The position numbers were made by a program, and so were the translations under genes. A DNA stretch of 35,307 nt from an uncultured Gammaproteobacteria bacterium. Lineage in GTDB: Bacteria; Patescibacteriota; Patescibacteriia; UBA9934; GWF2-40-263. Of this stretch, positions 1 through 35,307 are shown one piece after another. Every line of letters starts with the position of its first letter. The first letter of the stretch is position 1. Under the pieces are notes generated by a model. The model made no database searches and was not told the DNA's origin. It saw only the letters and a program-made list of their open reading frames with translations. The stretch spans positions 1 to 35,307 of the forward strand of contig CAYRYG010000001.1 in the NCBI GenBank assembly GCA_964428465.1, written 5' to 3'.

Positions 1-1
1 G

Positions 2-520
2 CTCGGCGGGCTCACCCACCCGAACCCGCGCGCCTGGATCGCGGCCTACGCGCTCGCCTGGTGCGTGCGCGACCGCCTGCAGCACGCGGACCGCGAGGAC
101 ATGATCGACCGCCTGGTCGAACACCTCGACGGCCTCGAGCCGTACCACGACGACCGCGTGGCCGACCGCCTCCGGCTCCTGCGGCACCCGGCCACGCTCG
201 CGTCCGCCGAGGCGCTGCGCGAGTCCGTCGGTACGAGCTGCTACGCCATCGAGTCCGTCCCCTTCGCGATCGGCTCCTTCCTGCGCCACCCCGCCGACAT
301 CCGGACGGGCGCGCTCGAGGTGCTGAACGCGGGCGGCGACACGGACACCAACGTCGGCATGTACGCGCAGCTCGCCGGCGCGGACCAGGGCGTCGACGCC
401 ATCCCCTGGGACTGGCGCGAGCAGATCCCCGACGCGCGCCAGGCGCTCGCCATCGGCACGGCGCTCGGGCGTATGGTGATCCACAACGGCTTCGCCTACC
501 TTCACGAGCACTTCGTCTGA
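2..520 (+). CDS. ADP-ribosylglycohydrolase family protein, C-terminal part (5' end outside window)
   Basis: Frame 2 is open from the window edge to TGA 518-520. The translation carries the ARH/DraG-type signature NAGGDTDTN followed by AIPWDW. The listed ORF 65..520 is only the Met-initiated portion. Confidence 0.8.
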   Translation, partial: LGGLTHPNPRAWIAAYALAWCVRDRLQHADREDMIDRLVEHLDGLEPYHDDRVADRLRLLRHPATLASAEALRESVGTSCYAIESVPFAIGSFLRHPADIRTGALEVLNAGGDTDTNVGMYAQLAGADQGVDAIPWDWREQIPDARQALAIGTALGRMVIHNGFAYLHEHFV

Positions 521-524
521 CCCT

Positions 525-580
525 GGGAAGCGCCCGCTTCCCTCTTTGCCCGGGACCCCCACGCGGTTGTGGGGAGTCCG
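525..580 (+). promoter_or_regulatory. intercistronic module IE1 (hairpin A - CTCTTTGCC box - hairpin B)
   Basis: GGGAAGCG-cc-CGCTTCCC (525-542), box 542-550, then GGACCCCCAC-gcggtt-GTGGGG(a)GTCC (553-579). Confidence 0.6.
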
Positions 581-614
581 GAAAAAGACAACGCCCTTTT
601 GACACGGAGATACG

Positions 615-1907
615 ATGGCCCTGATCGACGCCGGTCTCGTCAAGCTGACGACCGAGTGGATTCTCACGTCCCTCGCGGACGTGGACGTCTACAAGATCTA
701 CATGCTGCAGCTCTACTTCCTGAAGCACCGCGCGGTGCGCGGGAAGTACGGGTTCAAGAACCGCACCATCCGGGTGCCGCTCGGCAGGACGCTCGACATC
801 GAGGAGATCCGCCGCCAGCTCGAGCACGCGCGCGATCTGCGGTTCACGGACGAGGTCATCCGATTCCTCGAGCTCGTGAGCGCGCAGCGCGGCGGCCTCT
901 TCCGCCCCGAGTTCCTCGAGTTCCTTCGGACGCTCCAGCTCTCACCGATCCACGTTTCCCTCTCGGAAGACGGCTCCCAGCTCGTCATCGAGACCGAGGA
1001 GGCGCCGCTCGTCGAGGCGATGCTCTGGGAGACGCTCGTCATGAACGTCGTCAACCGGATGTACTTCCTCGACAAGATGCGCGAGGAAGGCAAGACGGAG
1101 GACGACGCCTGGGCCGAGGGCGACCGGCGGCTTACCGCGAAGATCGCGAAGCTCAGGGAAGCGCTCGCGCGCGGCGTCCGCGTCCCGTTCATCGACTTCG
1201 GCACGCGCCGCCGGTGGTCGCTGGCCTGGCAGGAACACGTGCTCCGTCGCCTCATGGCGGAGGTGCCCGAGATCCTCATGGGCACGAGCAACGTGCTGCT
1301 CGCGACGAAGCTGGGAATCCCCGTGGTCGGCACCATGGCGCACGAATGCGACATGGCCTACCAGGGCATCTACCGCGCCGAAGACGACGCGGCGGGCCGC
1401 CTCGTGTCGCACGAGATCATGCTCGATGACTGGGCCGAGATCTACGGCGACAGGCTGTCGATCGCGCTGTCCGACACCTACGGCAGCGAGTATTTCTTCC
1501 GGACGTTCGGCGCCGAGCGCGCGGCGTTCTGGAAGGGCCTGCGCCAGGACTCGGGCGACGTCTACGACTGGGGCGAGCGATTCATCCGCTTCTACCTGGA
1601 CTTCGACATCGACCCGCGCACCAAGTCCGCGGTGTTCTCCGACGGCCTGGACGTCGACAAGATGATCGGCCTCGCCGAGCGGTTCGGCGGGCGGACGAAC
1701 ATCCTGTTCGGCTGGGGTACCGACCTCATGAACGACATGGGGTTCGACCCGCTGTCGATCGTCGTGAAGCTGATCTGGTGCGCGGGACACTGGCTCGTGA
1801 AGCTCTCCGACAACCTGAAGAAGGCCACCGGCCCCGCGGAGGCGGTCGAGCGCGTCACGCGTCTCTCCGACTACACCAACACCGCGGCCGAAGAGTGCCG
1901 CGTCTGA
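615..1907 (+). CDS. pncB: nicotinate phosphoribosyltransferase (Preiss-Handler step 1)
   Basis: 430 aa with PncB-type motifs DFGTRRR, GTSN, GTMAHE, SDTYG, RQDSGD, GWGT and KLSDN..KATG. GGAG lies 5 nt before the ATG. Confidence 0.9.
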   Translation: MALIDAGLVKLTTEWILTSLADVDVYKIYMLQLYFLKHRAVRGKYGFKNRTIRVPLGRTLDIEEIRRQLEHARDLRFTDEVIRFLELVSAQRGGLFRPEFLEFLRTLQLSPIHVSLSEDGSQLVIETEEAPLVEAMLWETLVMNVVNRMYFLDKMREEGKTEDDAWAEGDRRLTAKIAKLREALARGVRVPFIDFGTRRRWSLAWQEHVLRRLMAEVPEILMGTSNVLLATKLGIPVVGTMAHECDMAYQGIYRAEDDAAGRLVSHEIMLDDWAEIYGDRLSIALSDTYGSEYFFRTFGAERAAFWKGLRQDSGDVYDWGERFIRFYLDFDIDPRTKSAVFSDGLDVDKMIGLAERFGGRTNILFGWGTDLMNDMGFDPLSIVVKLIWCAGHWLVKLSDNLKKATGPAEAVERVTRLSDYTNTAAEECRV

Positions 1908-1967
1908 CGAGAACGTCTCGTCTCTTTTCTCCAGGCCCCGAGCACATCGCGTGTTCGAGGCCTGGAG
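1906..1967 (+). promoter_or_regulatory. intercistronic module IE2
   Basis: GACGAGA-acg-TCTCGTC (1906-1922, overlapping the pncB stop), TCTTTTCTCC box, then a long hairpin CTCCAGGCC...GGCCTGGAG (1929-1967). Confidence 0.6.
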
Positions 1968-1988
1968 CCGAAGACTGGGAGAACGAAC

Positions 1989-3035
1989 GTGCCCCCTTCC
2001 AACATCCTCATCGCCGTCGACGCGCCGGACCCGGACAACTTCGCCCTGGTCGTCGCGCTCAAGCGGCTGTACCCGAACGCCAGGCTGTGGGTGATGCTGA
2101 CGGGACGCCCCGTCCGCTTCAACGCCTCGCCCGAGCACCAGCTCTGGGACTGGGACATTCGCGACTCGCGGATGGCGCTCGAGGCCTCCGCCGCGCGGCT
2201 CCGGAACTTCGTGCGCCACTACGGCGTCCGGATCCCGGAGGTGTACGACGGCGGGATCGCCCCGCGTACCCTCATCCCGCACCACGTCCACTTCGCGGAC
2301 TACTACCGCTACCTGGACGTCGACCCGCTCGCGGCCATCGCGCACAGCGAGCTGGTGCCGCAGGAGGACCTGGTGCGCGAGCTGCTCGCCGTCCCGGAGG
2401 GATCGGTGATGGTCGCCATCGGCGGCCCCATGACCGGCCTGGCGCAGCTCATCGCCCGCCACCCGGCCGTGGCGTCGCGCTTCCGCGAGGTGCACGCGAT
2501 GTTCGCCACCTGGGGGAAGGTCGAGCTCATGCAGTTCGACGGCCCGCCGCGCGGCGCCCTGCAGTTCAACGTCGCGTGCGACCCGCAGGCCGCGTACCAC
2601 GTGCTCATGGGGCTCGCCTGCCCCGTGTACTTGCTGCCGTCGGAGGTGACGCGCGTGCAGGGCATCGGGTTCCAGAACGCGCAGGCGCTGATGGGCGCGA
2701 TCGAAAGCACGCCTGGCAACCAGCGGCTGTACCTGCTCTACTGCGCGTGGTACGACGCCGCGGTCAAGCCGCGCCAGGACCGGAACCCGAACGAGCTCAT
2801 CTTCATCCACGACCTGTCGGCCGGCTTCTCCGCGGATCCCGCGATCCGCGCCGACGTGTACGACATGGTGCCGGTGGAGATCACCTCGGTTCCCCACCTC
2901 CCCGCCGAGGCGGCGGACTGGGGCAAGGTGCTGATGCGCGAGACCGCGTCGCCCGGCAACCGCTTCGCGGCGAAGGGCCTCGTTCCGGGCGGCGAGAGCG
3001 CGTACCTCCACCACCTCCGCGCGCTCGTGCGCTGA
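1989..3035 (+). CDS. inosine/uridine-preferring nucleoside hydrolase-like protein (divergent, paralog 1)
   Basis: GTG start preceded by GGGAGA. It has an N-terminal Asp cluster IAVDAPDPDNF, GGPMTGLAQLI (compare GPLTNLA) and FNVACDPQAA (compare EFNixxDPEAA). The usual DD is replaced by DN. Confidence 0.6.
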   Translation: MPPSNILIAVDAPDPDNFALVVALKRLYPNARLWVMLTGRPVRFNASPEHQLWDWDIRDSRMALEASAARLRNFVRHYGVRIPEVYDGGIAPRTLIPHHVHFADYYRYLDVDPLAAIAHSELVPQEDLVRELLAVPEGSVMVAIGGPMTGLAQLIARHPAVASRFREVHAMFATWGKVELMQFDGPPRGALQFNVACDPQAAYHVLMGLACPVYLLPSEVTRVQGIGFQNAQALMGAIESTPGNQRLYLLYCAWYDAAVKPRQDRNPNELIFIHDLSAGFSADPAIRADVYDMVPVEITSVPHLPAEAADWGKVLMRETASPGNRFAAKGLVPGGESAYLHHLRALVR

Positions 3036-3042
3036 ACATCCT

Positions 3043-3097
3043 GCGACCCGAGCGGTCGCCTCTTTCCCACGAACGACGAATCCATCGCCGTTCGTGG
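3043..3097 (+). promoter_or_regulatory. intercistronic module IE3
   Basis: GCGACC-cgagc-GGTCGC (3043-3059), CTCTTTCCC box, then CCACGAACG-13 nt-CGTTCGTGG (3067-3097), followed by AAGGAG. Confidence 0.6.
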
Positions 3098-3115
3098 CCA
3101 AGGAGATTGGCACTC

Positions 3116-4309
3116 ATGACCACGCTCTCTCTGCTCGTACCTTCCCCCGCCGCGGACCGGATCGCCGCCGCCATGCGCGACCTCCCGTCCCGACTCCGGT
3201 GGCCCGGAACCGTCGGCTTCGAGGACAACACCCAGACCCCCGAGACCGAGTCGATGGGCGCCAAGCTCGTCGTCGGCGGGTCCGAGTGGACCATCCGCTG
3301 CAACCGCGCGGACATCCTCGTCGGCACGACGTTCCGCGACGATCCGACCCTGTCGCTCGTCGCCGCCGTGGACGTGTCCTGGTCGCCCGCGCTCGACGCC
3401 GAGGCCGGCGCGCTCTACGCGGTGCCGGCCTTCCGCGGCATCGAGGTGGTCGACGGCCCCGGGTCGCTCGACGACCTCTGCGCCGCGGTCGGCTTCGGCC
3501 GGCGCAAGATCACCGATGTCCCCGCGCGCCCCGACCCGGTCGAGGTGAGCATCAACGGGACGCCCGTCCCGGTCGAGGCGGCCCCCGGCGTCACCCCCAA
3601 GCAGTTCGAGAAGGCGCTCGCCTCCCCGAAGTTCACCGACTGGGTGGCGTCCGTCGACCCCGGCCTCACGGTGAAGCGGGTCACCATCCAGTCGGTCGAC
3701 CTGTTCGGGCCGAACGTGGGGTTCCTGAAGATCGTCGCCGACGTGTCGAAGGACGGCGCGTTCGTCCCCGGCATCTCGTTCATCCGCGGCGACTCGGTGG
3801 GAATCCTGGTCGTGCTGGTCTGCGACGACCGCGAGTACCTGCTGCTCACCGTGCAGCCGCGCTCCTCCGTCGGCAGCTCCGGCTTCGTCGAGATCCCCGC
3901 GGGGATGATGGACGGCTCGGGCAACTTCGTGGGCCAGGCCGCCAAGGAGCTCGGCGAGGAGGCCGAGATCCGCATCACCGAGGGCGACCTCACGGACCTC
4001 TCCACCGCGATCGCGCGGACCGAGGAGGACTTCAACGCGCCCGTGAGCTACGCGCTCTCCCCGGGCGGCTGCGACGAGTGCATGCGGTTCTTCGTCCACC
4101 GCAGGAGCGTCACCCGCGCGGAGCTCGCCGCGCTCGAGGGCAAGGCCACCGGCCTGCTCGAGGAGGGCGAGGTCATCACGCTCAAGGTGGTCCCGCTCGA
4201 CGGCCGGATCCGCCGCATCCCCGACGGCAAGACCCAGATCGCCGTCGGGCTGTACCAGGAGATCCGCACCCTCGAGATGCTCGGGTCCCAGATCCTGACC
4301 ACGCACTGA
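3116..4309 (+). CDS. ADP-sugar/ADP-ribose pyrophosphatase (NUDX14-like Nudix domain) fused to an unknown ~165-aa N-terminal domain
   Basis: ATG 3116 follows AAGGAG (3100-3105). Residues ~165-397 resemble plant NUDX14-type enzymes (VDLFGPNVGFLKIVADV..., VEIPAGMMDGSGNFVGQAAKELGEEAEI). The upstream part of listed ORF 1778..4309 overlaps two other genes and is not coding. Confidence 0.75.
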   Translation: MTTLSLLVPSPAADRIAAAMRDLPSRLRWPGTVGFEDNTQTPETESMGAKLVVGGSEWTIRCNRADILVGTTFRDDPTLSLVAAVDVSWSPALDAEAGALYAVPAFRGIEVVDGPGSLDDLCAAVGFGRRKITDVPARPDPVEVSINGTPVPVEAAPGVTPKQFEKALASPKFTDWVASVDPGLTVKRVTIQSVDLFGPNVGFLKIVADVSKDGAFVPGISFIRGDSVGILVVLVCDDREYLLLTVQPRSSVGSSGFVEIPAGMMDGSGNFVGQAAKELGEEAEIRITEGDLTDLSTAIARTEEDFNAPVSYALSPGGCDECMRFFVHRRSVTRAELAALEGKATGLLEEGEVITLKVVPLDGRIRRIPDGKTQIAVGLYQEIRTLEMLGSQILTTH

Positions 4310-4324
4310 CGCACCTTTCACCTT

Positions 4325-4381
4325 GGCGACCCCATGGTCGCCTCTTTCTCCCGGCCGCCCTCGTCATGAGGACGTTCGGGA
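4325..4381 (+). promoter_or_regulatory. intercistronic module IE4
   Basis: GGCGACC-ccat-GGTCGCC (4325-4342), TCTTTCTCCC box, then an imperfect hairpin TCCCG...CGGGA (4349-4381). Confidence 0.55.
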
Positions 4382-4415
4382 CAGAAGAACGCAGCAACCT
4401 TCAAGGAGCCGCCCA

Positions 4416-5555
4416 ATGGCTCGCGTCATCCCTCCGTGGCTCGAGGTCATCCCCCTCGTCCGCTCGCTCCTCGTCATCATGGATCCCGGCCGGGACCAGG
4501 ACGACGAGGACACGCTGGTCGCCCTCAACCGCTTCGTGCGGATGGGCCTCATGGACGTGCTCGGCGTGGTGGCGAACCTCGCGCCGTCCGCCAACCGCGC
4601 GCGCCTGGCCCGCGGTACGCTCGACACGCTCGGCCTGCCCGAGATCCCGGTCGGCATCGGCACGGGCTGCACGCAGCCCGACGACGACGGCATGGCCTAC
4701 CAGTGGGCCGTCAGCTACCTGTCCCCCGAGGACGCGGTGGTGGACGGCAAGACCCTTCTGCGTCGCACCCTCGAGGGCGCGCAGCCTGGGCAGATCGTGC
4801 TCGTGCTGCTCTCCGGGCTCACCGACGCCTACGAGATCATGCGCGAGGAGCCGGCGCTGTTCGCGTCGCGCGTCCGCCGCGTGGTGTTCATGGGCGGCGT
4901 CGAGGCGAGCGGCGACAGCGTGAAGGTGTACAAGGACGGCCGGTTCCGCCCGGACCCGACCGCCCAGAACGTGAAGTTCGACACCGACTCCGCGGGCGTG
5001 CTGTACAAGCAGCTCCAGCTCATGGGCATCCCCATGACGATCCTCACCCGCCACGCCGCCGCGGCCGCCAAGGTGCCGCGCGCCATCTACGACGAGATGG
5101 CCGACACCGGGCACCCGGTCGGCGTCCGGCTGCGCGAGGCGCAGAAGACGGCCATCGAGGAGCTCTGGCGCCGCGCCAACCTCCCGGACGGCCACGCGGA
5201 CCGCATGGGCCTGCCGGGCCGGTGCAACGCCGCCTGGTTCCGCGGGGCGTTCCTCGGCGGCCAGGGCGACGACCGCGGCGCGGACGACGGCATCTGGGAC
5301 CTCGTGCAGACGTTCATGCTGTACGACCCCATGACGCTATTCGCCGCCGTTCCGTCGCTGCGCGAGTACTTCTTCGAGCCCGAGGTGATCGAGGTGTGCG
5401 ACGCGAACGGCCACCCGGTCGAGCACCTGGTCATCGGCGTCTCCGCCGCGCGCCACGGCGTCTCGCATCCCGAGGAGCTCGCCTCGTACCTCACGAAGGC
5501 GCTCGTCGAGAGCCTCCAGATGTCGATCGCCGAGCCGGAGCGCCAGCGCGCCTGA
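4416..5555 (+). CDS. inosine/uridine-preferring nucleoside hydrolase-like protein (divergent, paralog 2)
   Basis: ATG 4416 follows AAGGAG. It has an N-terminal VIMDPGRDQDDED Asp cluster (DxDxGxDD-like), LSGLTDAYEI...VVFMGG and NVKFDTDSAG, which together resemble the IUNH fold. Confidence 0.6.
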   Translation: MARVIPPWLEVIPLVRSLLVIMDPGRDQDDEDTLVALNRFVRMGLMDVLGVVANLAPSANRARLARGTLDTLGLPEIPVGIGTGCTQPDDDGMAYQWAVSYLSPEDAVVDGKTLLRRTLEGAQPGQIVLVLLSGLTDAYEIMREEPALFASRVRRVVFMGGVEASGDSVKVYKDGRFRPDPTAQNVKFDTDSAGVLYKQLQLMGIPMTILTRHAAAAAKVPRAIYDEMADTGHPVGVRLREAQKTAIEELWRRANLPDGHADRMGLPGRCNAAWFRGAFLGGQGDDRGADDGIWDLVQTFMLYDPMTLFAAVPSLREYFFEPEVIEVCDANGHPVEHLVIGVSAARHGVSHPEELASYLTKALVESLQMSIAEPERQRA

Positions 5556-5568
5556 CCGTACCTTCCCT

Positions 5569-5630
5569 GTGATCCTTCGGGATCACTCTTTCCTCGAGAA
5601 CCGGACCGAGCCGTTCGGTCGGGTCCTCGA
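5569..5630 (+). promoter_or_regulatory. intercistronic module IE5
   Basis: GTGATCC-ttcg-GGATCAC (5569-5586), exact TCTTTCCTCGAG (5587-5598), then a long imperfect hairpin TCGAG...CTCGA (5594-5630). Confidence 0.6.
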
Positions 5631-5644
5631 TGGGAGAAGCCAGC

Positions 5645-5890
5645 ATGGCCGACAACTACGTTTTGGACAGCGACGGCTGCGGGACGCACTGCGACGACTG
5701 CGGCCATCCGGTGTGCCAGTGCGGTCGCATCGCCAGAAGCCAGCTGTTCGTCCAGCACTACGTGCTCGACTCCGACGGCTGCGGGTCCACCTGCGCCACC
5801 TGCGGCAAGGCCTGGACCGTCTGCTCCTGCCCGCACGCCGCGGACACGCGCCGCGGGCTCCTGGAGGAACTCGCCTCAACTGGGACGTAA
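5645..5890 (+). CDS. 81-aa Cys-rich mini-protein with an internal tandem duplication (YVLDSDGCGxxCxxCG...CxC, two copies)
   Basis: ATG 5645 follows GGGAGA. Ten Cys fall in two 22-24 aa repeats offset by 34 aa, each containing C-x3-C-x2-C. The gene sits in the same regular spacing and intercistronic module pattern as its neighbours. Confidence 0.6.
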   Translation: MADNYVLDSDGCGTHCDDCGHPVCQCGRIARSQLFVQHYVLDSDGCGSTCATCGKAWTVCSCPHAADTRRGLLEELASTGT

Positions 5891-5937
5891 CCGAGCGTCC
5901 CCTCTTTCCCCAAGCCGCCGAGACCTCTCCGCGGCTT
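5882..5937 (+). promoter_or_regulatory. intercistronic module IE6
   Basis: GGGACG-8 nt loop containing the TAA stop-CGTCCC (5882-5901), CTCTTTCCCC box, then AAGCCGC-12 nt-GCGGCTT (5912-5937). Confidence 0.6.
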
Positions 5938-5968
5938 AGGACGAAGACACCACACATCGGGGAGCAAG

Positions 5969-7135
5969 ATGCTCTTAGCACTCACGGCGTCCACCCAGGG
6001 CAAGAACCTCTTCGTGGACGGGATTCCTGGCCGCGGCACGGTCCAGGTGACCGAGGCGGAAATCGCCGCCGGGCTGTTCCTCGACAAGGAGCGGATCTTG
6101 CGCGTCGTTGCGCGGATCGACGGCCGCTCAACGGTCATCGAGGTCGTGGACGCGGACGGTGACACGCTCGCTCGCGCCCAGTCGCGCGGAAGGCGCGCCA
6201 CGCTCTCGTTCCGCCTGCCCAAGGCAACGGCCCTCGGCGACGCCGAGAAGGACCTCCTGCGCCAGCACGGCCGCGTGTACCGCGACGGCGACGCCACGGT
6301 CGTCGAGGTCATGGGCAAGGCCTGGCTCCTCAACGAGCCCGGCGTGACCTGCGCGAACCCGACCGCGCCGGAGCCGGACCGCGTCTACCGGAAGGTCTTC
6401 GCCAAGAAGAAGATCTACCTCCCGGACGAGTACGACCGCGCGGTCGCGGAGTGCCTGTCCGGCCGGGACGTGTTCGTCCTCGGCATGAACGGGTACAGCG
6501 CCATCAAGCCCGAGAAGTGCCGTGAGTACGGCATCGACCCGGGCGCGTACGAGATCGCGTGCGAGGAGCTGCTGGAGTTCGCCATCAGGTCGCTTCGGAC
6601 GGCGTTCCCGGACATCAGCGTCCGGGTGATCCACGGCTCGTCCGCGATGGGCGTGGACCTGGCGATCCAGCGCTGCGCGAGGCGGGTGCTGCGCGACAGC
6701 GAGCTGGGGTTCTCCTGCCCCGAGTACCTGTTCTACGTCCAGGACGACTCGTACCCCGTGTACGTCGCATCCAGCGTCCACGACTACTCGCAGTCGTTCG
6801 TGCGCTCGTGCAACGTGCTCATCGCGGCGAACGGTCGGCTCCAGGCCTTCCGCATGGACATCGCCGCCGTGTTCGAGCACGACAAGTACCTCATCCCGGT
6901 GAACGTGATCAAGCTGATCTCGCGCACCGGTTCCCCGGCGGCCAAGAACGCGCTGGGGCAGATCGAGGACGCGGTCGCGCACTACGAGCAGCGGGTGTTC
7001 CAGGTCGGCAAGCAGGTGACCGAGGGTACCGCGGCCGACCGCTGGAAGGCGACCGGCTCGGAGGTGCGCGACGTGCTCGTCAACATCGCCCGCCACGTCC
7101 TTCCCAAGGAGATCTCCTGGAAGCTCGGCGCCTAG
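5969..7135 (+). CDS. hypothetical protein; C-terminal half possibly a DprA/SLOG-like Rossmann nucleotide-binding fold
   Basis: 388 aa, ATG after GGGGAG. The motifs VFVLGMNGYS, VIHGSSAMGVDLAIQRCA and VLIAANGRLQAF resemble DprA/YpsA-type GxxxxG(I/V)DxxAxxxA plus a later strand-Gly motif. I do not recognise the N-terminal ~170 aa. Confidence 0.65.
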   Translation: MLLALTASTQGKNLFVDGIPGRGTVQVTEAEIAAGLFLDKERILRVVARIDGRSTVIEVVDADGDTLARAQSRGRRATLSFRLPKATALGDAEKDLLRQHGRVYRDGDATVVEVMGKAWLLNEPGVTCANPTAPEPDRVYRKVFAKKKIYLPDEYDRAVAECLSGRDVFVLGMNGYSAIKPEKCREYGIDPGAYEIACEELLEFAIRSLRTAFPDISVRVIHGSSAMGVDLAIQRCARRVLRDSELGFSCPEYLFYVQDDSYPVYVASSVHDYSQSFVRSCNVLIAANGRLQAFRMDIAAVFEHDKYLIPVNVIKLISRTGSPAAKNALGQIEDAVAHYEQRVFQVGKQVTEGTAADRWKATGSEVRDVLVNIARHVLPKEISWKLGA

Positions 7136-7148
7136 CCCGGCTCCCCGT

Positions 7149-7204
7149 CGTGTCCGCCCGGACACGGCCTCTTTCCTCGAGCCGCCGAATCGTCGGCGTC
7201 TCGA
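7149..7204 (+). promoter_or_regulatory. intercistronic module IE7
   Basis: CGTGTCC-gccc-GGACACG (7149-7166), exact TCTTTCCTCGAG (7170-7181), then TCGAG-c-CGCCGA-atcg-TCGGCG-t-CTCGA (7177-7204). Confidence 0.6.
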
Positions 7205-7225
7205 TCCAAGGAGCTCGAACCTTTC

Positions 7226-8182
7226 ATGCCGACGGATCCCAGAATCAGCCACGGCGGCGGGCAGATGCGCGCGCAGTCGTTCTCCGTGCAGGTCTCGACC
7301 CGCACGCGCTGCAACGCCGGGTGCCAGTTCTGCATCTCGCGGACCACGCCCGGCACCGAGACCCCGGACAGCCCGGGCGCGCTGCGGTTCTGCGACGAGG
7401 CACGCCTGCGCGTCGGGCTCAACTATGCCCGCGCGCTCGGCGCCACACACGCCATCCTGACCGGCAAGGCGGACCCCACGCAGGAGGATTCCCTGTACCT
7501 TACCCGGCTCATCGACACCGCCCGCGAGTACCTGCCGCTGTGCGACATGCACACCAACGGCTTCCTGCTCCAGCCCGGCAAGATGCGCGAGAACCTGCTC
7601 GCGGAGCTCGTGGCCGCGGGACTCACCATGGTGACGTTCTCGGTCGCGAGCTTCGATCCGGGTGAGAACCGCACGCTCATGGGGATCAGGCAGGACCCGC
7701 GCGCGCTCATCGCGCAGGCTTGCGACCTCGGCCTGCTCGTCCGCTGCTCGCTCGTCATGAACGAGCGCGGCGTGCGCGACGTGGCCGGCGTGCTCGACTA
7801 CGTGAAGACCGCCGGCGAGCTCGGCGCGCACATGGTGGTCGTCCGCGAGGTGTGGAGGCCCAAGGTGTACGGCGTCTGGAACAAGGACGTCTTCGACTGG
7901 AACCACGCCAACGCCATTCCCCTTCCGCCGATCCAGGACGCCATCCTCGCGATCGCGTCCGAGGGCGGCAACCCGCGGGGCCTGCAGGTGCTCGATCCCC
8001 TTCCGTGGGGAACGCCGGTGCTCGGCATGGGCGGGGTGTTCCGCGACCCGTCCCACGGGGTGAACCTCACCTTCGCGCTGTGCGAGGAGGCGACGGTCGG
8101 CGCGGTGCTCAAGTCCGTGGTGCACATGCCCGACGGGCACGGCTACCGCAACTGGAACCACAAGGCCGAGATCCTCTACTAG
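7226..8182 (+). CDS. radical SAM enzyme, single [4Fe-4S] motif, no SPASM/twitch Cys cluster
   Basis: CNAGCQFC (C-x3-C-x2-C) at nt 7310-7333, in a MoaA/PqqE-like context (RTRCNAGCQFC, ILTGKADPT, HTNGFLL, TFSVASFDP). The start is uncertain: ATG 7226 lies 12 nt after AAGGAG, and ATG 7265 is an alternative. Confidence 0.85.
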   Translation: MPTDPRISHGGGQMRAQSFSVQVSTRTRCNAGCQFCISRTTPGTETPDSPGALRFCDEARLRVGLNYARALGATHAILTGKADPTQEDSLYLTRLIDTAREYLPLCDMHTNGFLLQPGKMRENLLAELVAAGLTMVTFSVASFDPGENRTLMGIRQDPRALIAQACDLGLLVRCSLVMNERGVRDVAGVLDYVKTAGELGAHMVVVREVWRPKVYGVWNKDVFDWNHANAIPLPPIQDAILAIASEGGNPRGLQVLDPLPWGTPVLGMGGVFRDPSHGVNLTFALCEEATVGAVLKSVVHMPDGHGYRNWNHKAEILY

Positions 8183-8239
8183 GGAGACCGTCTCCCTTCT
8201 TTCCTCGAGCCCTTGAACACATCACGTGTTCGAGGCCTC
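8182..8239 (+). promoter_or_regulatory. intercistronic module IE8
   Basis: GGGAGA-ccg-TCTCCC (8182-8196, abutting the TAG stop), exact TCTTTCCTCGAG (8198-8209), then a hairpin around GAACAC-atcac-GTGTTC (8207-8239). It shares a 21-nt core with IE2. Confidence 0.6.
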
Positions 8240-8277
8240 AAGACAAAGAACCGCTCATTCTTCATCGGAGTCATCCC

Positions 8278-10455
8278 ATGTACGCTCCCCGCGTGTTCGC
8301 CCTCGACCGCAAGACGCACGGCTTCGTCCGCGTCGGCACGATCGTGCCGAAGGTCATCCCGCAGGCCATCGACTACAACGTCGGCCAGATGGTCGCGATG
8401 GCAAGGGACGCCGCCGCGAAGGGCGTCCAGGTGGCCTTGTTCCCGGAACTCGGGATCACGGGCTACTCGTGCCGCGACGCGTTCCACGACCTCGCGTTCA
8501 TCGACAACGCGCGGCTCGGCCTGCTCCGCTTCGTCGAGGAGACGAAGGGGCTCGGGACCGTATTCTTCGTCGGCCTGCCGTTCCCGGTCAACGGGACGCT
8601 CTACAACGTGGCGGCGGTCGTCAACCGCGGGAAGATCCTCGGGTTCGTCCCGAAGTCCTTCATCCCGACGTACGGCCCGCACGAGGAACGCCGCTGGTTC
8701 GCCTGCGCCGACCACCTGAACGTGGGCATGGTCCGGCTCCAGGGCCACGATGGCGAGATCCCGATGGGAACCAACATCCTCGTGGACGTCGAGAGCGACA
8801 CGGACGCGTCGATCATCACGGTCGGCGTGGAAATCTGCGAGGACGGCTGGCACCGCCGGAGCCCCTCGGGGCTGCAGGCGGCCAACGGCGCGCTGCTGTG
8901 CGTCAATCTGTCGGCGTCCCCGTGGATCGTCGGCAAGGACGAGTACCGCCACATGATCTTCGGGGCCCTCTCCGGCGACATCATCGGGGCGTACGCATAC
9001 TGCGCGTGCGGCCACGGCGAATCCACGGACGACGTGGTGGTGGACGGCGACGCGTTCGTCGCCCAGAACGGGTCGATCCTGGCCTCCTCGGAGCGCTGGA
9101 ACCGGCACGGCCAGATCGTCATCGCGGACATCGACGCCGAGTCGCTCATGCGCGAGCGCTGGGTGACCGGCACGTTCGCCGAGGTGGCCGCGACCAACCG
9201 GGCCGCGTACCGCCACGTGGTGGCGCACGTCGCCGAGCTCAAGCTCGAGTCGAAGTCGGCCTACGCGCCGCCCCAGCTCGAGCTGATCGATGGCGGGCAA
9301 AGCGCCCACCTGAAGTTCACGGCCCCGAGCGGCGGCAACCGCGCCCTGCGCCGCGCCGTCACGCGCAAGCCCTTCGTCCCCCGCGACCCGGAGACGATGG
9401 ACAAGCGCTGCCGCGACATCATCTCGGGCGTCGGCCAGGGCCTCATGGTGAGGCTCGAGTCCATGGCCCGCTCGCAGCTCGTGCGCGAGGGCAAGAACCC
9501 GTACGTCGAGGCGCTCCCGCCGCAGCACGTCTACTACGGCCACTCCGGCGGCCGCGACTCGACGTTCGTCGGCGAGGTGATCCTCTGGGTGTACGACCAG
9601 CTCGGCTGGGACAGGAAGTTCATCCACGCCGTGCGCATGCCCGGCCCGGCCTCCTCCGACTCGACGCAGGACCTGTCGCTGCGCCGCTGCACCCTGGCGG
9701 GCGTGGACGTCATCACCAACCCGATCGAGGACCACACCGCGCGGCTGCTGCGTTCCGAGGGCCACGAGCCGTGTTGGAACAACCCCGACCCGGCGAAGCG
9801 CCGGTGCGGGCGGTGCCAGAATGCCCAGGCCCGCGTCCGCACGCTCATCCTGATGACGTACGGGTTCGTGGTCGGCACCGGCGATCTCACCGAGATCATG
9901 ACCGGTTGGTGCACGTACAACGGCGACCACATGTCGATGTACAACCCGAACGCGGGCGTGCCGAAGACGCTGGTCGAGCACCTCATCCGCTGGATCGCCA
10001 TGAACTGGCGGACCGGCGAGGAGCGGCAGGTGCTGCTCGAGATCCTGGCGGAGATCGTCTCCCCCGAGCTCGTGAAGGCGCTGCCCGGCGAGGCGATCCA
10101 ATCGACGGAGGACGAGGACGGTCCGATCCAGCTCAAGGACTTCTTCATCTACTGGTTCCGCCGCCACGGCGCGAGCCCGACGAAGATCGCCTACCTCGCG
10201 GAGATTGCCTTCGCGCAGGTCGAGGACGAGGGCGACGAGACCTACGACCGCGCCACGATCCTGAAGTGGCTGCGCCGGTTCTTCGCCAAGTTCCAGGAGG
10301 CGCAATTCAAGCGCAACGCCGCCCCGTCCGGCCCGCTCATGGGCTCGGTCGGCGCGTCGCAGCGCGGCAACCTGCGCTGGCACTCCGACGCCGACATCGG
10401 CGCCTGGATCGCCGAGATCGACCGCCTCATCGCCGACCTCGCGCGCGCCGCCTGA
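8278..10455 (+). CDS. nadE: glutamine-dependent NAD+ synthetase (CN-hydrolase domain + NAD synthase domain)
   Basis: 725 aa. The nitrilase-type E/K/C context is present (LFPELGITGY, VPKSFIP, GVEICEDGW). The ATP-PPase P-loop is YYGHSGGRDST, followed by NAQARVRTLILM. ATG 8278 follows GGAG. Confidence 0.9.
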   Translation: MYAPRVFALDRKTHGFVRVGTIVPKVIPQAIDYNVGQMVAMARDAAAKGVQVALFPELGITGYSCRDAFHDLAFIDNARLGLLRFVEETKGLGTVFFVGLPFPVNGTLYNVAAVVNRGKILGFVPKSFIPTYGPHEERRWFACADHLNVGMVRLQGHDGEIPMGTNILVDVESDTDASIITVGVEICEDGWHRRSPSGLQAANGALLCVNLSASPWIVGKDEYRHMIFGALSGDIIGAYAYCACGHGESTDDVVVDGDAFVAQNGSILASSERWNRHGQIVIADIDAESLMRERWVTGTFAEVAATNRAAYRHVVAHVAELKLESKSAYAPPQLELIDGGQSAHLKFTAPSGGNRALRRAVTRKPFVPRDPETMDKRCRDIISGVGQGLMVRLESMARSQLVREGKNPYVEALPPQHVYYGHSGGRDSTFVGEVILWVYDQLGWDRKFIHAVRMPGPASSDSTQDLSLRRCTLAGVDVITNPIEDHTARLLRSEGHEPCWNNPDPAKRRCGRCQNAQARVRTLILMTYGFVVGTGDLTEIMTGWCTYNGDHMSMYNPNAGVPKTLVEHLIRWIAMNWRTGEERQVLLEILAEIVSPELVKALPGEAIQSTEDEDGPIQLKDFFIYWFRRHGASPTKIAYLAEIAFAQVEDEGDETYDRATILKWLRRFFAKFQEAQFKRNAAPSGPLMGSVGASQRGNLRWHSDADIGAWIAEIDRLIADLARAA

Positions 10456-10483
10456 CGAGACGCGCAGGCTGAATCCTGCGGCT

Positions 10484-10513
10484 ACCCGCTCAACGAGAGC
10501 GGGTTTTTCTTTC
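10484..10513 (+). terminator. intrinsic terminator ending the NAD gene string
   Basis: ACCCGCTC-aacga-GAGCGGGT followed by TTTTCTTTC. An extra hairpin precedes it at 10463-10480. Confidence 0.8.
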
Positions 10514-10522
10514 GTCAAATGG

Positions 10523-10551
10523 TTGACAATCCGTCTCGCGCGTGATACACA
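10523..10551 (+). promoter_or_regulatory. sigma70-type promoter of the CPBP gene
   Basis: TTGACA - 17 nt - TACACA, with a TGn extended -10. Confidence 0.55.
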
Positions 10552-10582
10552 TTCCCTCCGTCAGCCACAAGGAGGCCGTGAC

Positions 10583-11284
10583 GTGACCGCAACTTCCAAA
10601 CAGCGCAACTACCTCTGGGCGAGCTTCACCTCGCTGATCATGATCGGGATCGTGAAGCACTTCTGGCCCGACCTCATCCCATTCGGCTTCTGGGACCTGT
10701 GGAAGGCCCCGCATGGCGTGTGGGCGGGAGTGCTGGCCGGATGGCCCATCCTCGCCTGGGGCGGGTTCCACTTCCTGCGCACCTGGATCTTCGTCGACGA
10801 GAACCACTACGCGCTCGCCTACGCCAACGCGTGGGACACCTTCGTCAACGGGCTGAAGATCAGCGCCTGGGCCGGGATCACCGAGGAGATCGCCTTCCGC
10901 TGGCTCATCTTCCTCGGGGCCATGCCGTCGCTCGTGCTCGGCAACTTCCTGTTCTTCGGCTGCCTCGGATTCGGCTTCGCGGAGTGGTTCCACCTCCACG
11001 TGTGGGGCGCGCTCGCGAACTGGACGACGTTCGGCATCCTCGAGCCGCAGATCTTCGACCCGCGGATGTGGTACGTCGGAGCCGCCCTGCTGTACTCGAA
11101 CGCGTTCTTCCGGGAAGGCCACGCCTACCAGGGGATCATCGGGATCATCAACTCGTGGTTCCTCGGCATGGGGTTCTTCTACCTCACCTTCAACTACGGC
11201 CTCGGCTCGGCGATCATCGTGCACTTCCTGTACGACGTGCTGATCTTCTCCGGCATGGCCGCGGCCATCGCCAAGCGGTCCTGA
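10583..11284 (+). CDS. CPBP family intramembrane glutamic endopeptidase (CAAX protease/Abi-like)
   Basis: GTG 10583 lies 7 nt after AAGGAGG. The protein is multi-TM and has the three CPBP motifs: EEIAFR, FREGH (FxxxH) and HFLYD (HxxxD). Confidence 0.8.
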   Translation: MTATSKQRNYLWASFTSLIMIGIVKHFWPDLIPFGFWDLWKAPHGVWAGVLAGWPILAWGGFHFLRTWIFVDENHYALAYANAWDTFVNGLKISAWAGITEEIAFRWLIFLGAMPSLVLGNFLFFGCLGFGFAEWFHLHVWGALANWTTFGILEPQIFDPRMWYVGAALLYSNAFFREGHAYQGIIGIINSWFLGMGFFYLTFNYGLGSAIIVHFLYDVLIFSGMAAAIAKRS

Positions 11285-11292
11285 CCGCCTTC

Positions 11293-11323
11293 CCCGCCAA
11301 CGTACGGCGGGTTTTTCTTTTTT
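11293..11323 (+). terminator. intrinsic terminator after the CPBP gene
   Basis: CCCGCC-aacgtac-GGCGGG followed by TTTTTCTTTTTT. Confidence 0.8.
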
Positions 11324-11329
11324 GTGAAT

Positions 11330-11361
11330 CAAAAAAGCCGGCGGGTGTGGAACCCTCCGGC
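11330..11361 (-). terminator. intrinsic terminator after gene 11366..12508
   Basis: Hairpin 11337-11361 (GCCGG/CCGGC outer stem) with a T-tract on the reverse strand (AAAAAA 11331-11336 on +). Confidence 0.65.
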
Positions 11362-11365
11362 AGGT

Positions 11366-12508
11366 CTACGTCGCGACGAGCGCGGCGATCTCGTCGGCCT
11401 TCCGCTGGCGCCACGCGGCGGCGGCCTCGCGGATCTTTCCCGCGGACCACGAGCCGATGTGGGTTCGCGGCGGCCTGGCCCCCCGCGCCTCGCCCTCGTA
11501 CGGCGCGTCCATGGGCTTGGCTTCCACGAGGGCGACGGCCGCGAGGATCCGCGGCGTGACCGGGACGCCCGGAAGCGACAGCGCGTAGAGGACGTTCTGG
11601 GTGAGGTGCTCGCAGATGAACGTCCCGCCCCAGCGCTCGAGATACTCCGCGAGCGCGTCGAGGACGCGCGGGTCGTCGGGCCAGGCCCTGGCGATCCGCA
11701 GCGCCTCGTCGTACGCGGACGCGCGGTCCGTGAACACGGTGAGGAAGTCCGCGAGGAAGTGCTCGCCGATCGCCGCCCGGATCCGCGCGGCGAGCGCCGG
11801 GTTCCCGTACCCTTCCTCGCCGAACGGTCCGGACAGGTGCTGGATGAGCGCTGTGCGGTACCGGCACTCGGCATGGTTCGAAGACTTGAACTCGGACTCG
11901 CACTGGGCGTCGTCGACGCGGAACGTCACCGCGCGCCGGATCTCCGCCTGGAGCTCCGGCCCGCACTGCGCGATGCCGACCACGAGCGCGAACGCCGCGA
12001 GCGCCTTGGGGACGGTGTCCGGATACGTTCCCTTGTGGTTCCCGCCGACGGGACGCTGGACGTAGGGGGCGCGGTAGGCGGCGAGCAGGAACTCGGCGTG
12101 GTTCGGCAGGTTGTCCGCGATGGCCAGGATGGCCGCGTCGCGGACGCGCGAGTGGGGCGCGACGGCGTTGTCCCAGAGAAGCGCGAACGCGCGCTCGTCG
12201 GGCAGGAAGCGCCCGAGCGCGCGGGCCGAGGCTTCGCGCTGGGCCTGATCGCAGCAGTCGACGATGGCGAACGGGAGGAACCCCGCGCCCGCCTTCTCAT
12301 CGTCGTCCAACGCGTCTATGCGCCCCTTGACCGCGGCGATGAGCCGGCGGCTGAGCGGGTGCTCGCTGCGCGCGACCCCGACCAGCTCGGCGATGAGCAC
12401 GTCACGGATCTCGGCCCGCTCCACAAGCGGCGCGAGGATCTGGTCGGCCTCCGCGGCCGACAACTTCTCGACGAAAAAGACCTCGGGAATGAGCGGTTCG
12501 ACGGACAT
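11366..12508 (-). CDS. hypothetical protein (helical, no family recognised)
   Basis: 380 aa. ATG 12508 lies 4 nt after GGAGG. It has its own promoter (12560-12588) and terminator (11330-11361). Confidence 0.7.
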   Translation of the reverse strand: MSVEPLIPEVFFVEKLSAAEADQILAPLVERAEIRDVLIAELVGVARSEHPLSRRLIAAVKGRIDALDDDEKAGAGFLPFAIVDCCDQAQREASARALGRFLPDERAFALLWDNAVAPHSRVRDAAILAIADNLPNHAEFLLAAYRAPYVQRPVGGNHKGTYPDTVPKALAAFALVVGIAQCGPELQAEIRRAVTFRVDDAQCESEFKSSNHAECRYRTALIQHLSGPFGEEGYGNPALAARIRAAIGEHFLADFLTVFTDRASAYDEALRIARAWPDDPRVLDALAEYLERWGGTFICEHLTQNVLYALSLPGVPVTPRILAAVALVEAKPMDAPYEGEARGARPPRTHIGSWSAGKIREAAAAWRQRKADEIAALVAT

Positions 12509-18040: not shown

Positions 18041-18046
18041 TGATTA

Positions 18047-18108
18047 GGGGTAAGGGGCAAGGGAAAAGAATCAAGGACCTTGCTTCTTGCTCCTTGTCCC
18101 TTATCCCT
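18047..18108. repeat. long imperfect inverted repeat with a purine-rich arm and a pyrimidine-rich arm
   Basis: GGGGTAAGGGGCAAGGGAAAAGAATCAAGG ... CCTTGCTTCTTGCTCCTTGTCCCTTATCCC, lying between the TerC-like stop and the SIMPL start. Confidence 0.5.
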
Positions 18109-19036: not shown

Positions 19037-19046
19037 AACGGGCGGG

Positions 19047-19055
19047 ATTATATCA
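19047..19055 (-). promoter_or_regulatory. extended -10 box 10 nt before TerC/DUF475 ATG (leaderless-type)
   Basis: Reverse strand reads TGaTATAAT, where the TGA is the glycerate kinase stop codon, then 10 nt, then ATG 19036. Confidence 0.45.

Positions 19056-33489: not shown

Positions 33490-35307
<1,818 letters not shown>

Follow-up and report, generated by a model that had tools for sequence, protein, structure and literature searches.

A putative NrtR-controlled NAD salvage regulon of Uhrbacteria and the radical SAM enzyme family encoded in it

The closest described systems to the locus reported here are the Preiss-Handler operons under NrtR control, such as nrtR-pncA-pncB-nadD-nadE of Clostridium acetobutylicum and the nrtR/pncA-pncB-nadE loci of Pseudomonas (PMC2330246). 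NrtR, which combines a Nudix and a winged-helix domain, is encoded next to such operons and targets pncA, pncB, nadD and nadE, and prs in some relatives; it binds a 21-bp palindromic operator built around the core GT-N7-AC (Rodionov et al. 2008, PMC2330246), and ADP-ribose, the presumed inducer, released NrtR proteins from DNA in the cases tested (PMC2330246). We analysed a contig of 35,307 nt (CAYRYG010000001.1, the whole of which is called the window below), whose positions 1-10513 carry a string of nine genes, and found that this string belongs to a much enlarged form of the known NrtR-controlled NAD salvage operon, in a bacterium of the candidate phyla radiation (CPR, or Patescibacteria). 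As in the described operons, an NrtR gene adjoins it, with 21-bp GT-N7-AC palindromes, and the targets of NrtR are among its genes. In contrast to the usual four or five genes it probably comprises 16, its NadD is fused to an NAD kinase, its host is a CPR bacterium and its spacers hold conserved two-hairpin modules. Furthermore, it adds an ADP-ribosylglycohydrolase (ARH), two nucleoside-hydrolase-like proteins (NH1 and NH2), a Nudix fusion protein, a SLOG-fold protein and a radical S-adenosylmethionine (SAM) enzyme, together with a PurA paralogue, kinase-like and von Willebrand factor A (vWA)-like proteins and a Cys-rich open reading frame (ORF).

Phages rebuild NAD by two pathways, NARP1, formed by Adps and Namat, and NARP2, formed by NadV and NMNAT. 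The original prediction for this DNA drew an analogy with these counter-defence pathways, and the locus does share with them the rebuilding of NAD from breakdown products, including ribose phosphate derived from ADP-ribose. The analogy as a counter-defence device was not supported, because the locus is not phage-borne but chromosomal and syntenic, is absent from the phage and viral collections searched, and encodes an ordinary Preiss-Handler route under an ordinary NrtR. That route is the deamidated one (PncA, PncB, NadE); the 16-gene operon has neither a Prs-like Adps nor an enzyme of the nicotinamide phosphoribosyltransferase (NAMPT) type, and its PncB is an equivalog of nicotinate phosphoribosyltransferase (NAPRTase).

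A further comparison is offered by the predicted anti-ADP-ribosylation systems centred on ADP-ribosylglycohydrolases (ARG-centred systems; Iyer, Burroughs and Aravind 2022, PMC9503650). These resemble the locus in their Nudix-type regulator, ADP-ribosylglycohydrolase, vWA-like protein and variable accessory genes, and in the phosphatases that occur in its relatives. However, the conserved core here is the NAD synthesis route and not ARH, and no rhodanese-phosphatase, ARPP or nuclease effector was found in the window operon.

The NAD operon, its host and its regulator

The window string had been described as nine co-directional genes with near-uniform spacers that end at one strong terminator, and the coordinates of genes, spacers and terminator confirmed this description. 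All nine genes lie on the + strand of positions 1-10513, and their GC content at third codon positions (GC3) is 0.85-0.97, which is typical of real genes in a genome of 66-69% GC. The eight spacers measure 94, 81, 80, 106, 89, 78, 90 and 95 nt. The features of the string are listed here with their family matches.

2-520, + strand: ARH (DraG/ARH family), 3' part, 173 codons of a 356-aa protein; PF03747 (ADP_ribosyl_GH) 3.9e-23
615-1907, + strand: PncB, nicotinate phosphoribosyltransferase, 430 aa; PF04095 8.5e-50, PF17767 4.1e-20
1989-3035, + strand: NH1, divergent nucleoside-hydrolase-like protein, 348 aa; PF01156 (IU_nuc_hydro) 1.4e-12, partial
3116-4309, + strand: Nudix fusion, 397 aa; unassigned N-terminal domain (residues ~1-200) and C-terminal ADP-ribose-pyrophosphatase-like Nudix domain
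4416-5555, + strand: NH2, XopQ/HopQ1-like nucleoside-hydrolase-fold protein, 379 aa; PF01156 3.1e-09
5645-5890, + strand: Cys-rich ORF, 81 aa, 10 Cys; two copies of YVLDSDGCGxxCxxCG...CxC; GC3 0.86
5969-7135, + strand: SLOG-fold protein, 388 aa; beta-rich N-terminal domain (residues ~1-125) and C-terminal SLOG-fold domain of ~290 aa
7226-8182, + strand: radical SAM enzyme, single cluster, 318 aa; PF04055 2.2e-07; C29-x3-C33-x2-C36
8278-10455, + strand: NadE, glutamine-dependent NAD+ synthetase, 725 aa; PF00795 (CN_hydrolase) 1.1e-14, PF02540 (NAD_synthase) 1.5e-14
10484-10513, + strand: strong intrinsic terminator closing the operon; 8-bp stem with 6 GC pairs, then TTTTTCTTT / TTTTTCTTTCG

No promoter-like site was found on the + strand inside the string, which, together with the single strong terminator at its end, argues for one transcription unit. 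The nine genes stand as predicted, but the start of the string lies outside the window. L001 (L-numbers label the related loci and contigs that were compared with the window), a groundwater-metagenome contig whose overlap of 11,907 bases with the window contains 2 differences, adds seven co-directional genes up to nrtR, followed by the full-length ARH gene (L001 8836-9906, PF03747 2.1e-38), whose 5' end is outside the window. The order in L001 is nrtR, three unknowns, the PurA-like gene, pncA, the nadD-NAD-kinase fusion and ARH, and then pncB. The window string probably represents the distal nine genes of a 16-gene operon of ~19 kb, with the nrtR start ~8.6 kb upstream of the window.

Pfam and NCBIfam searches upheld most of the predicted families (ARH, PncB, NH1, NH2, radical SAM, NadE). 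At the level of protein families, as judged by sequence matches, the operon appears to carry the complete Preiss-Handler route together with an NAD kinase (PncA, PncB, NadD-NADK and NadE). PncB passed both NAPRTase model cut-offs (NF003704, 379.8 bits against 379; TIGR01514, 310.9 bits against 269.6), and NadE scored 562 bits with NF002730 (cut-off 473) and retains both the SGGxDS loop, as HSGGRDS, and the Cys of the nitrilase domain (VEICEDG). PncA and NadD are encoded upstream of the window, in L001; the former matched Isochorismatase (9.4e-12) and the nicotinamidase model NF008623 (2.9e-22), the latter, which is encoded as a fusion with NAD kinase, matched CTP_transf_like (7.8e-08) and TIGR00482 (3.7e-13), and both stayed below the equivalog cut-off. 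A core of PncA, NadD-NADK, PncB, Nudix, radical SAM and NadE recurs in Uhrbacteria, Falkowbacteria, Komeilibacteria, Buchananbacteria and Parcubacteria.

The regulator and its candidate operators, all upstream of the window, are the following.

L001 767-1438: NrtR, Nudix and winged helix; PF21906 (NrtR_WHD) 2.8e-27, PF00293 (NUDIX) 2.7e-15
L001 648-668: NrtR operator-like site 1, perfect 21-bp palindrome ATCGTGTCACCTTGACACGAT, 109 nt upstream of nrtR
L001 ~1439-1459: NrtR operator-like site 2, imperfect (2 mismatches), just past the nrtR stop and ahead of the long operon

NrtR matched NF050029 at 3.4e-47, under the cut-off. Both palindromes contain the GT-N7-AC core and overlap TTGACA hexamers that resemble -35 elements, and similar sites occur beside nrtR, pncA or the radical SAM gene in L014, L020, L034 and L035.

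An RlmN gene precedes nrtR in L001, and its product is 90% identical to RlmN of Ca. Uhrbacteria RIFOXYB12_FULL_58_10, which therefore places the host among the high-GC Uhrbacteria (CPR/Patescibacteria). This upstream gene, a second radical SAM gene, was considered as a part of the system and rejected, as RlmN is a housekeeping rRNA methylase. A phage collection of 50,697 records gave no DNA match for positions 1-12000 and no match to the radical SAM or SLOG protein, the radical SAM family was not found in IMG/VR, and the one SLOG match in a viral collection is a 309-kb 'viral' contig without NAD genes. No tRNAs are present. A phage or mobile origin was rejected on the lack of phage-collection matches, the absence of the radical SAM family from IMG/VR and the lack of tRNAs, and the locus is a chromosomal one of a bacterium of the Uhrbacteria. 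The remainder of the window is ordinary chromosome, with genes for an ABC transporter, GNAT, SIMPL, TerC, DUF4147/MOFRL, histidine kinases and a collagen-repeat protein. The SIMPL (DUF541), TerC/DUF475 and DUF4147/MOFRL (glycerate-kinase-like) genes (17225-20303, - strand) follow the NAD operon in the window, as they do in L004, L010 and L012, a synteny that shows a fixed chromosomal place of the operon in these Uhrbacteria.

All these data are consistent with one functional NAD/ADP-ribose unit, as had been proposed, and we consider it probable that the 16-gene string is an NrtR-controlled regulon for NAD(P) salvage and ADP-ribose recycling in small-genome Uhrbacteria. NrtR would bind the 21-bp palindromes at the promoters of nrtR and of the long operon, and when NAD is consumed the accumulating ADP-ribose would release it and lift repression. 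PncA would then convert nicotinamide to nicotinate, PncB would join nicotinate and phosphoribosyl pyrophosphate (PRPP) to nicotinate mononucleotide (NaMN), and the NadD domain of the fusion protein would form nicotinate adenine dinucleotide (NaAD), from which NadE would produce NAD with glutamine and the kinase domain of the fusion NADP. In parallel, ARH may free ADP-ribose from ADP-ribosylated substrates and the ADPRase-like Nudix protein may split it into AMP and ribose-5-phosphate. NH1, NH2 and the SLOG protein could cut, or bind and sense, nicotinamide riboside (NR), nicotinamide mononucleotide (NMN), NaMN or ADP-ribose (ADPR), with the freed base passing to PncA and PncB and the ribose phosphate to PRPP synthesis. 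The radical SAM enzyme may abstract a ribose hydrogen from ADPR, NAD, NaAD or a damaged or foreign derivative, and its product would feed NadE or the salvage loop.

The radical SAM family and its association with NAD genes

The radical SAM enzyme belongs to a family of 149 homologues (46-77% identity) that was found almost only in CPR genomes; all source-given names are CPR/Patescibacteria lineages, and databases name the members generically as radical SAM protein, or as MoaA by similarity. We scanned one genome per species, which gave 24 loci, and mapped the neighbours by tblastn with the operon proteins. Eighteen of the loci carry the titles Uhrbacteria, Falkowbacteria, Parcubacteria, Buchananbacteria, Komeilibacteria or Saccharibacteria; five others are titled 'uncultured Gammaproteobacteria' and one 'bacterium', and we suspect that these six titles are wrong. 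The radical SAM gene lies in an NAD cluster in 24/24 loci. When NrtR, PncA, PncB, NadD-NADK and NadE were counted as core NAD genes, 23 of the 24 had at least one and 21 at least two, and the remaining locus has ARH and Prs. The gene stands most often immediately 5' of nadE, and in loci of the Falkowbacteria type it is divergent from nrtR. Additional neighbours are an ADPRase-like Nudix protein (14/24), a His_Phos_1 phosphatase (9/24), Prs or Prs-like proteins, ARH (6/24) and the PurA paralogue (2/24). The genomic context thus links the family strongly to NAD metabolism, a link previously undescribed as far as we found; a search of open-access papers found nothing relevant on this cluster, on CPR NAD salvage or on radical SAM enzymes in NAD metabolism. 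Of the three embedded unknowns, this family co-localises with NAD genes elsewhere, and the SLOG family does so in part (8/20 loci), but the Cys-rich ORF is an orphan.

A distant relative of the enzyme (24% identical) was also observed at L071 16200-17066, immediately 5' of nadE in a low-GC CPR cluster. The NAD association may therefore reach beyond the tight radical SAM family.

C29, C33 and C36, the N-terminal CX3CX2C motif, are invariant in 39 sequences, and the only conserved cysteines outside this cluster are C56 and C286. Neither a SPASM/twitch nor a MoaA-type three-Cys auxiliary cluster was found in the C-terminal part of the family, where C286 is the only such cysteine. An AlphaFold (AF2) model (pLDDT 91) gave as Foldseek neighbours MoaA (1.7e-11, TM score 0.64), viperins and viperin-like proteins (TM 0.57-0.69), BlsE and DesII, and also SkfB, a maturase of ribosomally synthesised and post-translationally modified peptides (RiPPs). 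Identity to MoaA was rejected, together with QueE and viperin orthology, on the scores and the missing auxiliary cluster: the protein reached 24 bits with the MoaA model TIGR02666 against a cut-off of 284 (MoaA model cut-offs are ~284-325), the family profile matched viperin chains at an insignificant E of 0.014, and PADLOC gave no match. None of the three unknowns matches a characterised enzyme over its full length (the MoaA models give the 24 bits above), which agrees with the original prediction; this had seen no obvious role for them in canonical NAD salvage.

The window enzyme shares with MoaA (GTP 3',8-cyclase) and viperin the N-terminal CX3CX2C motif and a partial TIM barrel of ~300 aa, and these proteins are also its best matches in structure, but it is only 13-17% identical to them in structural alignments and its context is NAD salvage instead of molybdopterin synthesis or defence. 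MoaA, viperin, BlsE and DesII all abstract hydrogen from a nucleotide or nucleotide-sugar, MoaA and viperin from the ribose of a nucleoside triphosphate. Most probably, the radical SAM enzyme would perform ribose-directed radical chemistry on a nucleotide of the NAD pool. A more specific proposal, which is tentative although quite possible, is that it is a pyridine-nucleotide enzyme with a 5'-deoxyadenosyl step on the ribose of NAD, NaAD, ADP-ribose or a related nucleotide, which would open a salvage route closed to the canonical enzymes or make a modified NAD-type cofactor in CPR bacteria, with the SLOG family as the matching N-glycosidase or sensor.

In a related alternative, a modified pyridine or ADP-ribose nucleotide would be made or degraded. 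The radical SAM enzyme, perhaps aided by the PurA paralogue and the hydrolase-fold proteins, would produce an NAD analogue or convert a non-standard scavenged nucleotide, and the Preiss-Handler route would provide its precursor or consume its product. In its favour, the enzyme has the fold of the ribose-remodelling proteins named above, its gene accompanies NAD genes in 24/24 loci and mostly lies immediately 5' of nadE, His_Phos_1 phosphatases adjoin its gene in 9/24 loci, and the PurA paralogue is divergent (161 against 402 bits, with NGPWQRK in place of TTGR). However, no known NAD analogue needs such chemistry, export and resistance genes are missing from the operon, the PurA paralogue accompanies the radical SAM gene in 2/24 loci only, and NrtR control is typical of salvage. 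In addition, to our knowledge, reduced CPR genomes rarely retain secondary metabolism. We regard this alternative, which the original prediction had already raised for the whole gene string, as rather unlikely, and would now confine it to the radical SAM step (and the PurA paralogue).

Accessory proteins of the operon and other possible roles

In addition to the salvage core, the operon encodes proteins that would act on ADP-ribose or related nucleotides. ARH matched the DraG model TIGR02662 at 8e-11, under the cut-off. The Nudix call was weak in Pfam (NUDIX 6e-4, under the cut-off) and was vindicated by profile comparison: the C-terminal domain of the fusion aligns end to end with a 190-aa Nudix family (A3) of other CPR NAD clusters, whose profile matched structures of ADPRase, NudK and NUDT14 (1VIU, an ADPRase, 4.5e-16; 3O6Z 5.1e-16; 1G0S 2.3e-14; NUDT14 6.4e-14), and for this reason the assignment is solid at the profile level. 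The Nudix box of the window protein reads G-MMDGS-G-NFVGQAA-KELGEEAEI, in which the first Glu and the Arg of GX5EX7REUXEEXGU are replaced; within the EUxEE core, the family retains Glu residues, of which E79 and E83 are invariant. The N-terminal domain of the fusion resembles a stand-alone 160-aa protein of L010 (2.5e-10). One CPR cluster (L046 ~831-2000) encodes a 382-aa fusion of a NadD-like adenylyltransferase with an ADPRase-like Nudix domain, which recalls the NadM-Nudix bifunctional enzymes and by this analogy supports a probable NAD role for the ADPRase-like Nudix family.

NH1 matched RihC and RihA weakly in NCBIfam, had no match among PDB sequences, and has orthologues in the NAD clusters of L010 and L036. 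NH2 is closer to XopQ (NF041355, 1.2e-47, 163 bits against an equivalog cut-off of 500, and thus below it), and matched the XopQ structures 7JLU (1.4e-40) and 4P5F (8.4e-40) over ~325 residues; we take 4P5F to be the XopQ structure solved with ADP-ribose bound. NH2 has the nucleoside-hydrolase fold in common with the type III effectors XopQ and HopQ1 but is cytoplasmic and operon-encoded and not a secreted effector, and lacks their N-terminal effector region.

The SLOG protein had no sequence match in Pfam, NCBIfam, PADLOC or the PDB, and the guess that it is SLOG-like was borne out by its AF2 model (pLDDT 92). Foldseek placed this model with LOG (3SBX, 1YDH, 5ZI9), PpnN, the molybdenum-cofactor carrier protein (MCP) and the TRPM homology regions (MHR) 1/2 of TRPM2 with ADPR (E ~3e-4, prob 1.0). 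With the LOG/PpnN N-glycosidases and TRPM2 MHR1/2 it shares the Rossmann-like SLOG fold, the placement of a glycine-rich nucleotide-binding loop (HGASxMGVD) and a setting in the metabolism of nucleotides and ADP-ribose, but it has an extra beta-rich N-terminal domain and lacks the catalytic PGGxGTxxE motif of LOG, which is replaced by ANGRxQAF (ANGRxQAFxxD); the third conserved motif is NGYS. The family comprises 73 homologues with a core of ~290 aa, and the beta-rich first ~100 residues are confined to close relatives. Among 20 metagenome loci with a length of 8 kb or more, 8 (~40%) have NAD genes nearby, and so do several other loci. In CPR genomes, the SLOG gene lies within NAD clusters and typically adjoins nadD-nadK, directly between pncA and nadD-nadK in L008, L039 and L067 and directly 5' of nadD-nadK in L071 and L078. 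In the minimal Uhrbacteria cluster, nrtR-pncA-SLOG-nadD/nadK-pncB-prs-nadE, a SLOG protein that cleaves NMN to nicotinamide and ribose-5-phosphate would close the loop, although this is a guess.

Outside the CPR (Melainabacteria and others; L042 8488-12097, L006/L007, L047, L051, L060), SLOG genes do not stand beside NAD genes and have a conserved neighbourhood of a Fic/DOC protein and a cyclic-phosphate receiver (cREC_REC) protein. This neighbourhood suggests a nucleotide-signalling or conflict role there.

Upstream of the window, L001 1659-6402 holds a module of a 419-aa protein, a kinase-like protein, one or two vWA-like proteins and a divergent PurA paralogue, which accompanies CPR NAD clusters in varied arrangements (L004, L012, L014, L078). 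Three of its proteins are described as follows.

L001, upstream of the window: kinase-like protein, 287 aa; matches the PADLOC models MkoA and PD-T4-6 at 2e-7, the only PADLOC-matching protein
L001, upstream of the window: vWA-like protein, 329 aa; DGSGS motif
L001, upstream of the window: divergent PurA paralogue; 161 bits against an equivalog cut-off of 402

In E. coli PurA, aspartate is bound by the motif TTGR, and at this position the paralogue reads NGPWQRK.

Several observations weigh against reading the operon as a regulon for NAD(P) salvage and ADP-ribose recycling. The NadD, PncA, NrtR and ARH matches are all under the NCBIfam equivalog cut-offs; the Nudix box is degenerate (G-x5-G and KELGEE for G-x5-E and REUxEE), so that the fusion protein may bind its ligand and not hydrolyse it; and the SLOG family lacks NAD genes in 12 of the 20 larger metagenome loci. 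The canonical Preiss-Handler route needs no radical chemistry, PurA paralogue, kinase-like or vWA-like proteins, and so part of the operon goes beyond salvage. Moreover, the content of the 16 genes varies among close relatives: L004 is without ARH, NH1, the Nudix fusion, NH2, the Cys-rich ORF and the radical SAM gene, and DUF1152 or His_Phos_1 proteins appear elsewhere. Conflict systems are likewise marked by variation of this kind (PMC9503650).

The operon could accordingly be viewed as a conflict system, in which ADP-ribosylation is inducibly reversed and NAD refilled once a phage ADP-ribosyltransferase, an NADase toxin of a competitor or an NAD-depleting defence of the cell itself has struck. 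In function, this corresponds to the NARP analogue of the original prediction, and it comes close to the predicted ARG-centred systems. The combination of an NrtR-type Nudix regulator with ARH and a vWA-like protein is that of ARG-centred systems (PMC9503650 section 3.8), the kinase-like protein matches MkoA and PD-T4-6, accessory genes are gained, lost and moved among close relatives, and the SLOG family lies beside Fic/DOC and cREC_REC genes outside the CPR. We nevertheless consider this view improbable: the operon contains no effector (nuclease, toxin, TIR/SIR2), its PADLOC matches are limited to the kinase-like protein, and ARH is optional (6/24 radical SAM loci), while a whole housekeeping route to NAD and NADP lies within it, its location is syntenic in several species, and it was not seen in the phage or viral collections searched.

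Operons of reduced genomes can mix functions, and the radical SAM, SLOG and Cys-rich genes might be functionally unrelated passengers under a common promoter. The SLOG loci without NAD genes (12/20) and the restriction of the Cys-rich ORF to the window lineage would fit such hitch-hiking. Against this, the association of the radical SAM gene with NAD genes persists through rearrangement in five or more named CPR groups, the divergent nrtR/radical SAM arrangement has an operator-like site in the common spacer, and the order pncA-SLOG-nadD/nadK recurs in distant CPR lineages, which makes the idea very doubtful.

The Cys-rich ORF has its own Shine-Dalgarno (SD) sequence and spacer modules on both sides like its neighbours, and it looks like a real cistron. 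The original prediction had named it among the genes coupled to the salvage enzymes. However, it is a lineage-specific orphan: no homologue was found in 1.84 billion representative proteins, where the sole match was a spurious eukaryotic C2H2 zinc-finger protein, and it is absent from every related cluster compared. It looks like a recent lineage-specific addition and not a conserved partner, and its product is possibly a small metal or Fe-S protein that is not essential to the system. That it might be a RiPP-type precursor, cross-linked or matured by the radical SAM enzyme encoded two genes downstream, is suggested by its duplicated Cys-rich sequence and by SkfB among the structural neighbours but is close to refuted, as the radical SAM family persists in dozens of genomes without such an ORF and has no SPASM/twitch cluster (its conserved non-cluster Cys are C56 and C286), the operon encodes no leader-recognition domain (RiPP recognition element, RRE), protease or exporter, and the ORF has no homologue at all.

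Intercistronic hairpin modules and the biology of the operon

A common design was found in 8/8 spacers of the window string and in 13/15 spacers of the full operon (L001 2919-17663). It begins with the stop codon, followed by a GC-rich hairpin 1 and, immediately after this, the motif [C/T]TCTTTYCYC; a purine run stands further downstream, ahead of the SD and the start codon. In most spacers UCUUU pairs with this purine run to form a long imperfect hairpin 2, although one spacer of the window folds differently. All eight window spacers fold better than shuffles (z -2.1 to -4.7).

Spacer 521-614, module 525-588, + strand: two-hairpin module ARH-pncB; z = -2.1; UCUUU pairs with the downstream AAAGA run
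Spacer 1908-1988, module 1906-1974, + strand: two-hairpin module pncB-NH1; z = -4.65
Spacer 3036-3115, module 3043-3105, + strand: two-hairpin module NH1-Nudix fusion; z = -4.0; the 3' strand contains the SD AAGGAG
Spacer 4310-4415, module 4325-4388, + strand: two-hairpin module Nudix fusion-NH2; z = -2.7
Spacer 5556-5644, module 5569-5637, + strand: two-hairpin module NH2-Cys-rich ORF; z = -3.1
Spacer 5891-5968, module 5882-5947, + strand: two-hairpin module Cys-rich ORF-SLOG; z = -4.1; hairpin 1 overlaps the stop codon
Spacer 7136-7225, module 7147-7215, + strand: two-hairpin module SLOG-radical SAM; z = -4.7
Spacer 8183-8277, module 8181-8250, + strand: two-hairpin module radical SAM-nadE; z = -3.6

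On the + strand of the window, a hairpin followed by TCTTT occurs eight times in the operon, always in its spacers, and once elsewhere, and CTCTTTYCYC was observed 4 times against 0.18 expected. Other genes of the window end in ordinary T-rich terminators. The modules are also present in the clusters of other high-GC Uhrbacteria, where some hairpin 1 sequences are identical and a few changes are compensatory: hairpin 1 after pncB (GACGAGA..TCTCGTC TCTTTTCTCC) is identical in L004, L010 and L012, and the Nudix fusion-NH2 hairpin also lies 3' of the Nudix-fusion orthologue in L010, there on the opposite strand. Rfam gave no match at the gathering threshold in L001 and the window, on which basis a riboswitch or other known RNA was rejected. 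A general anti-SD clamp was also rejected, since in minimum-energy folds UCUUU pairs with the SD in only 2/8 window spacers (3036-3115 and 5556-5644); it pairs with a purine run 5' of the SD in five others and is unpaired in 7136-7225. We infer that the modules are leaky terminators and/or elements for RNase processing and 3'-end stabilisation, in which case a single RNA would span the operon and undergo attenuation or processing at the module of each spacer. A module at the gene boundaries of an operon offers a clean natural example of built-in operon punctuation.

Two further genes of the window were observed outside the operon.

10523-11284, + strand: polytopic membrane protein, 233/253 aa, directly after the terminator with a TTGACA hexamer just upstream; it has no Pfam match, is kept only in the closest relatives and contains an EEIAFRW motif reminiscent of CPBP/CAAX-type intramembrane proteases
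33490-35298, - strand: 602-aa protein with peptidoglycan-binding PF01471 and long collagen triple-helix repeats (PF01391, 2.3e-48), an unusual combination in a small-genome bacterium

NAD salvage is held to be a closed chapter of bacterial biochemistry. In the CPR, bacteria without de novo NAD synthesis that depend on other cells, a radical SAM enzyme is linked to NAD salvage no less closely than pncB or nadE. Missing activities related to NAD may also reside in the SLOG-fold family and the PurA paralogue. If the radical SAM enzyme acts on an NAD-type nucleotide, this would be a new reaction in cofactor metabolism, it would give a function to a family that so far bears generic names, and it would explain in part how CPR bacteria survive on scavenged nucleotides.

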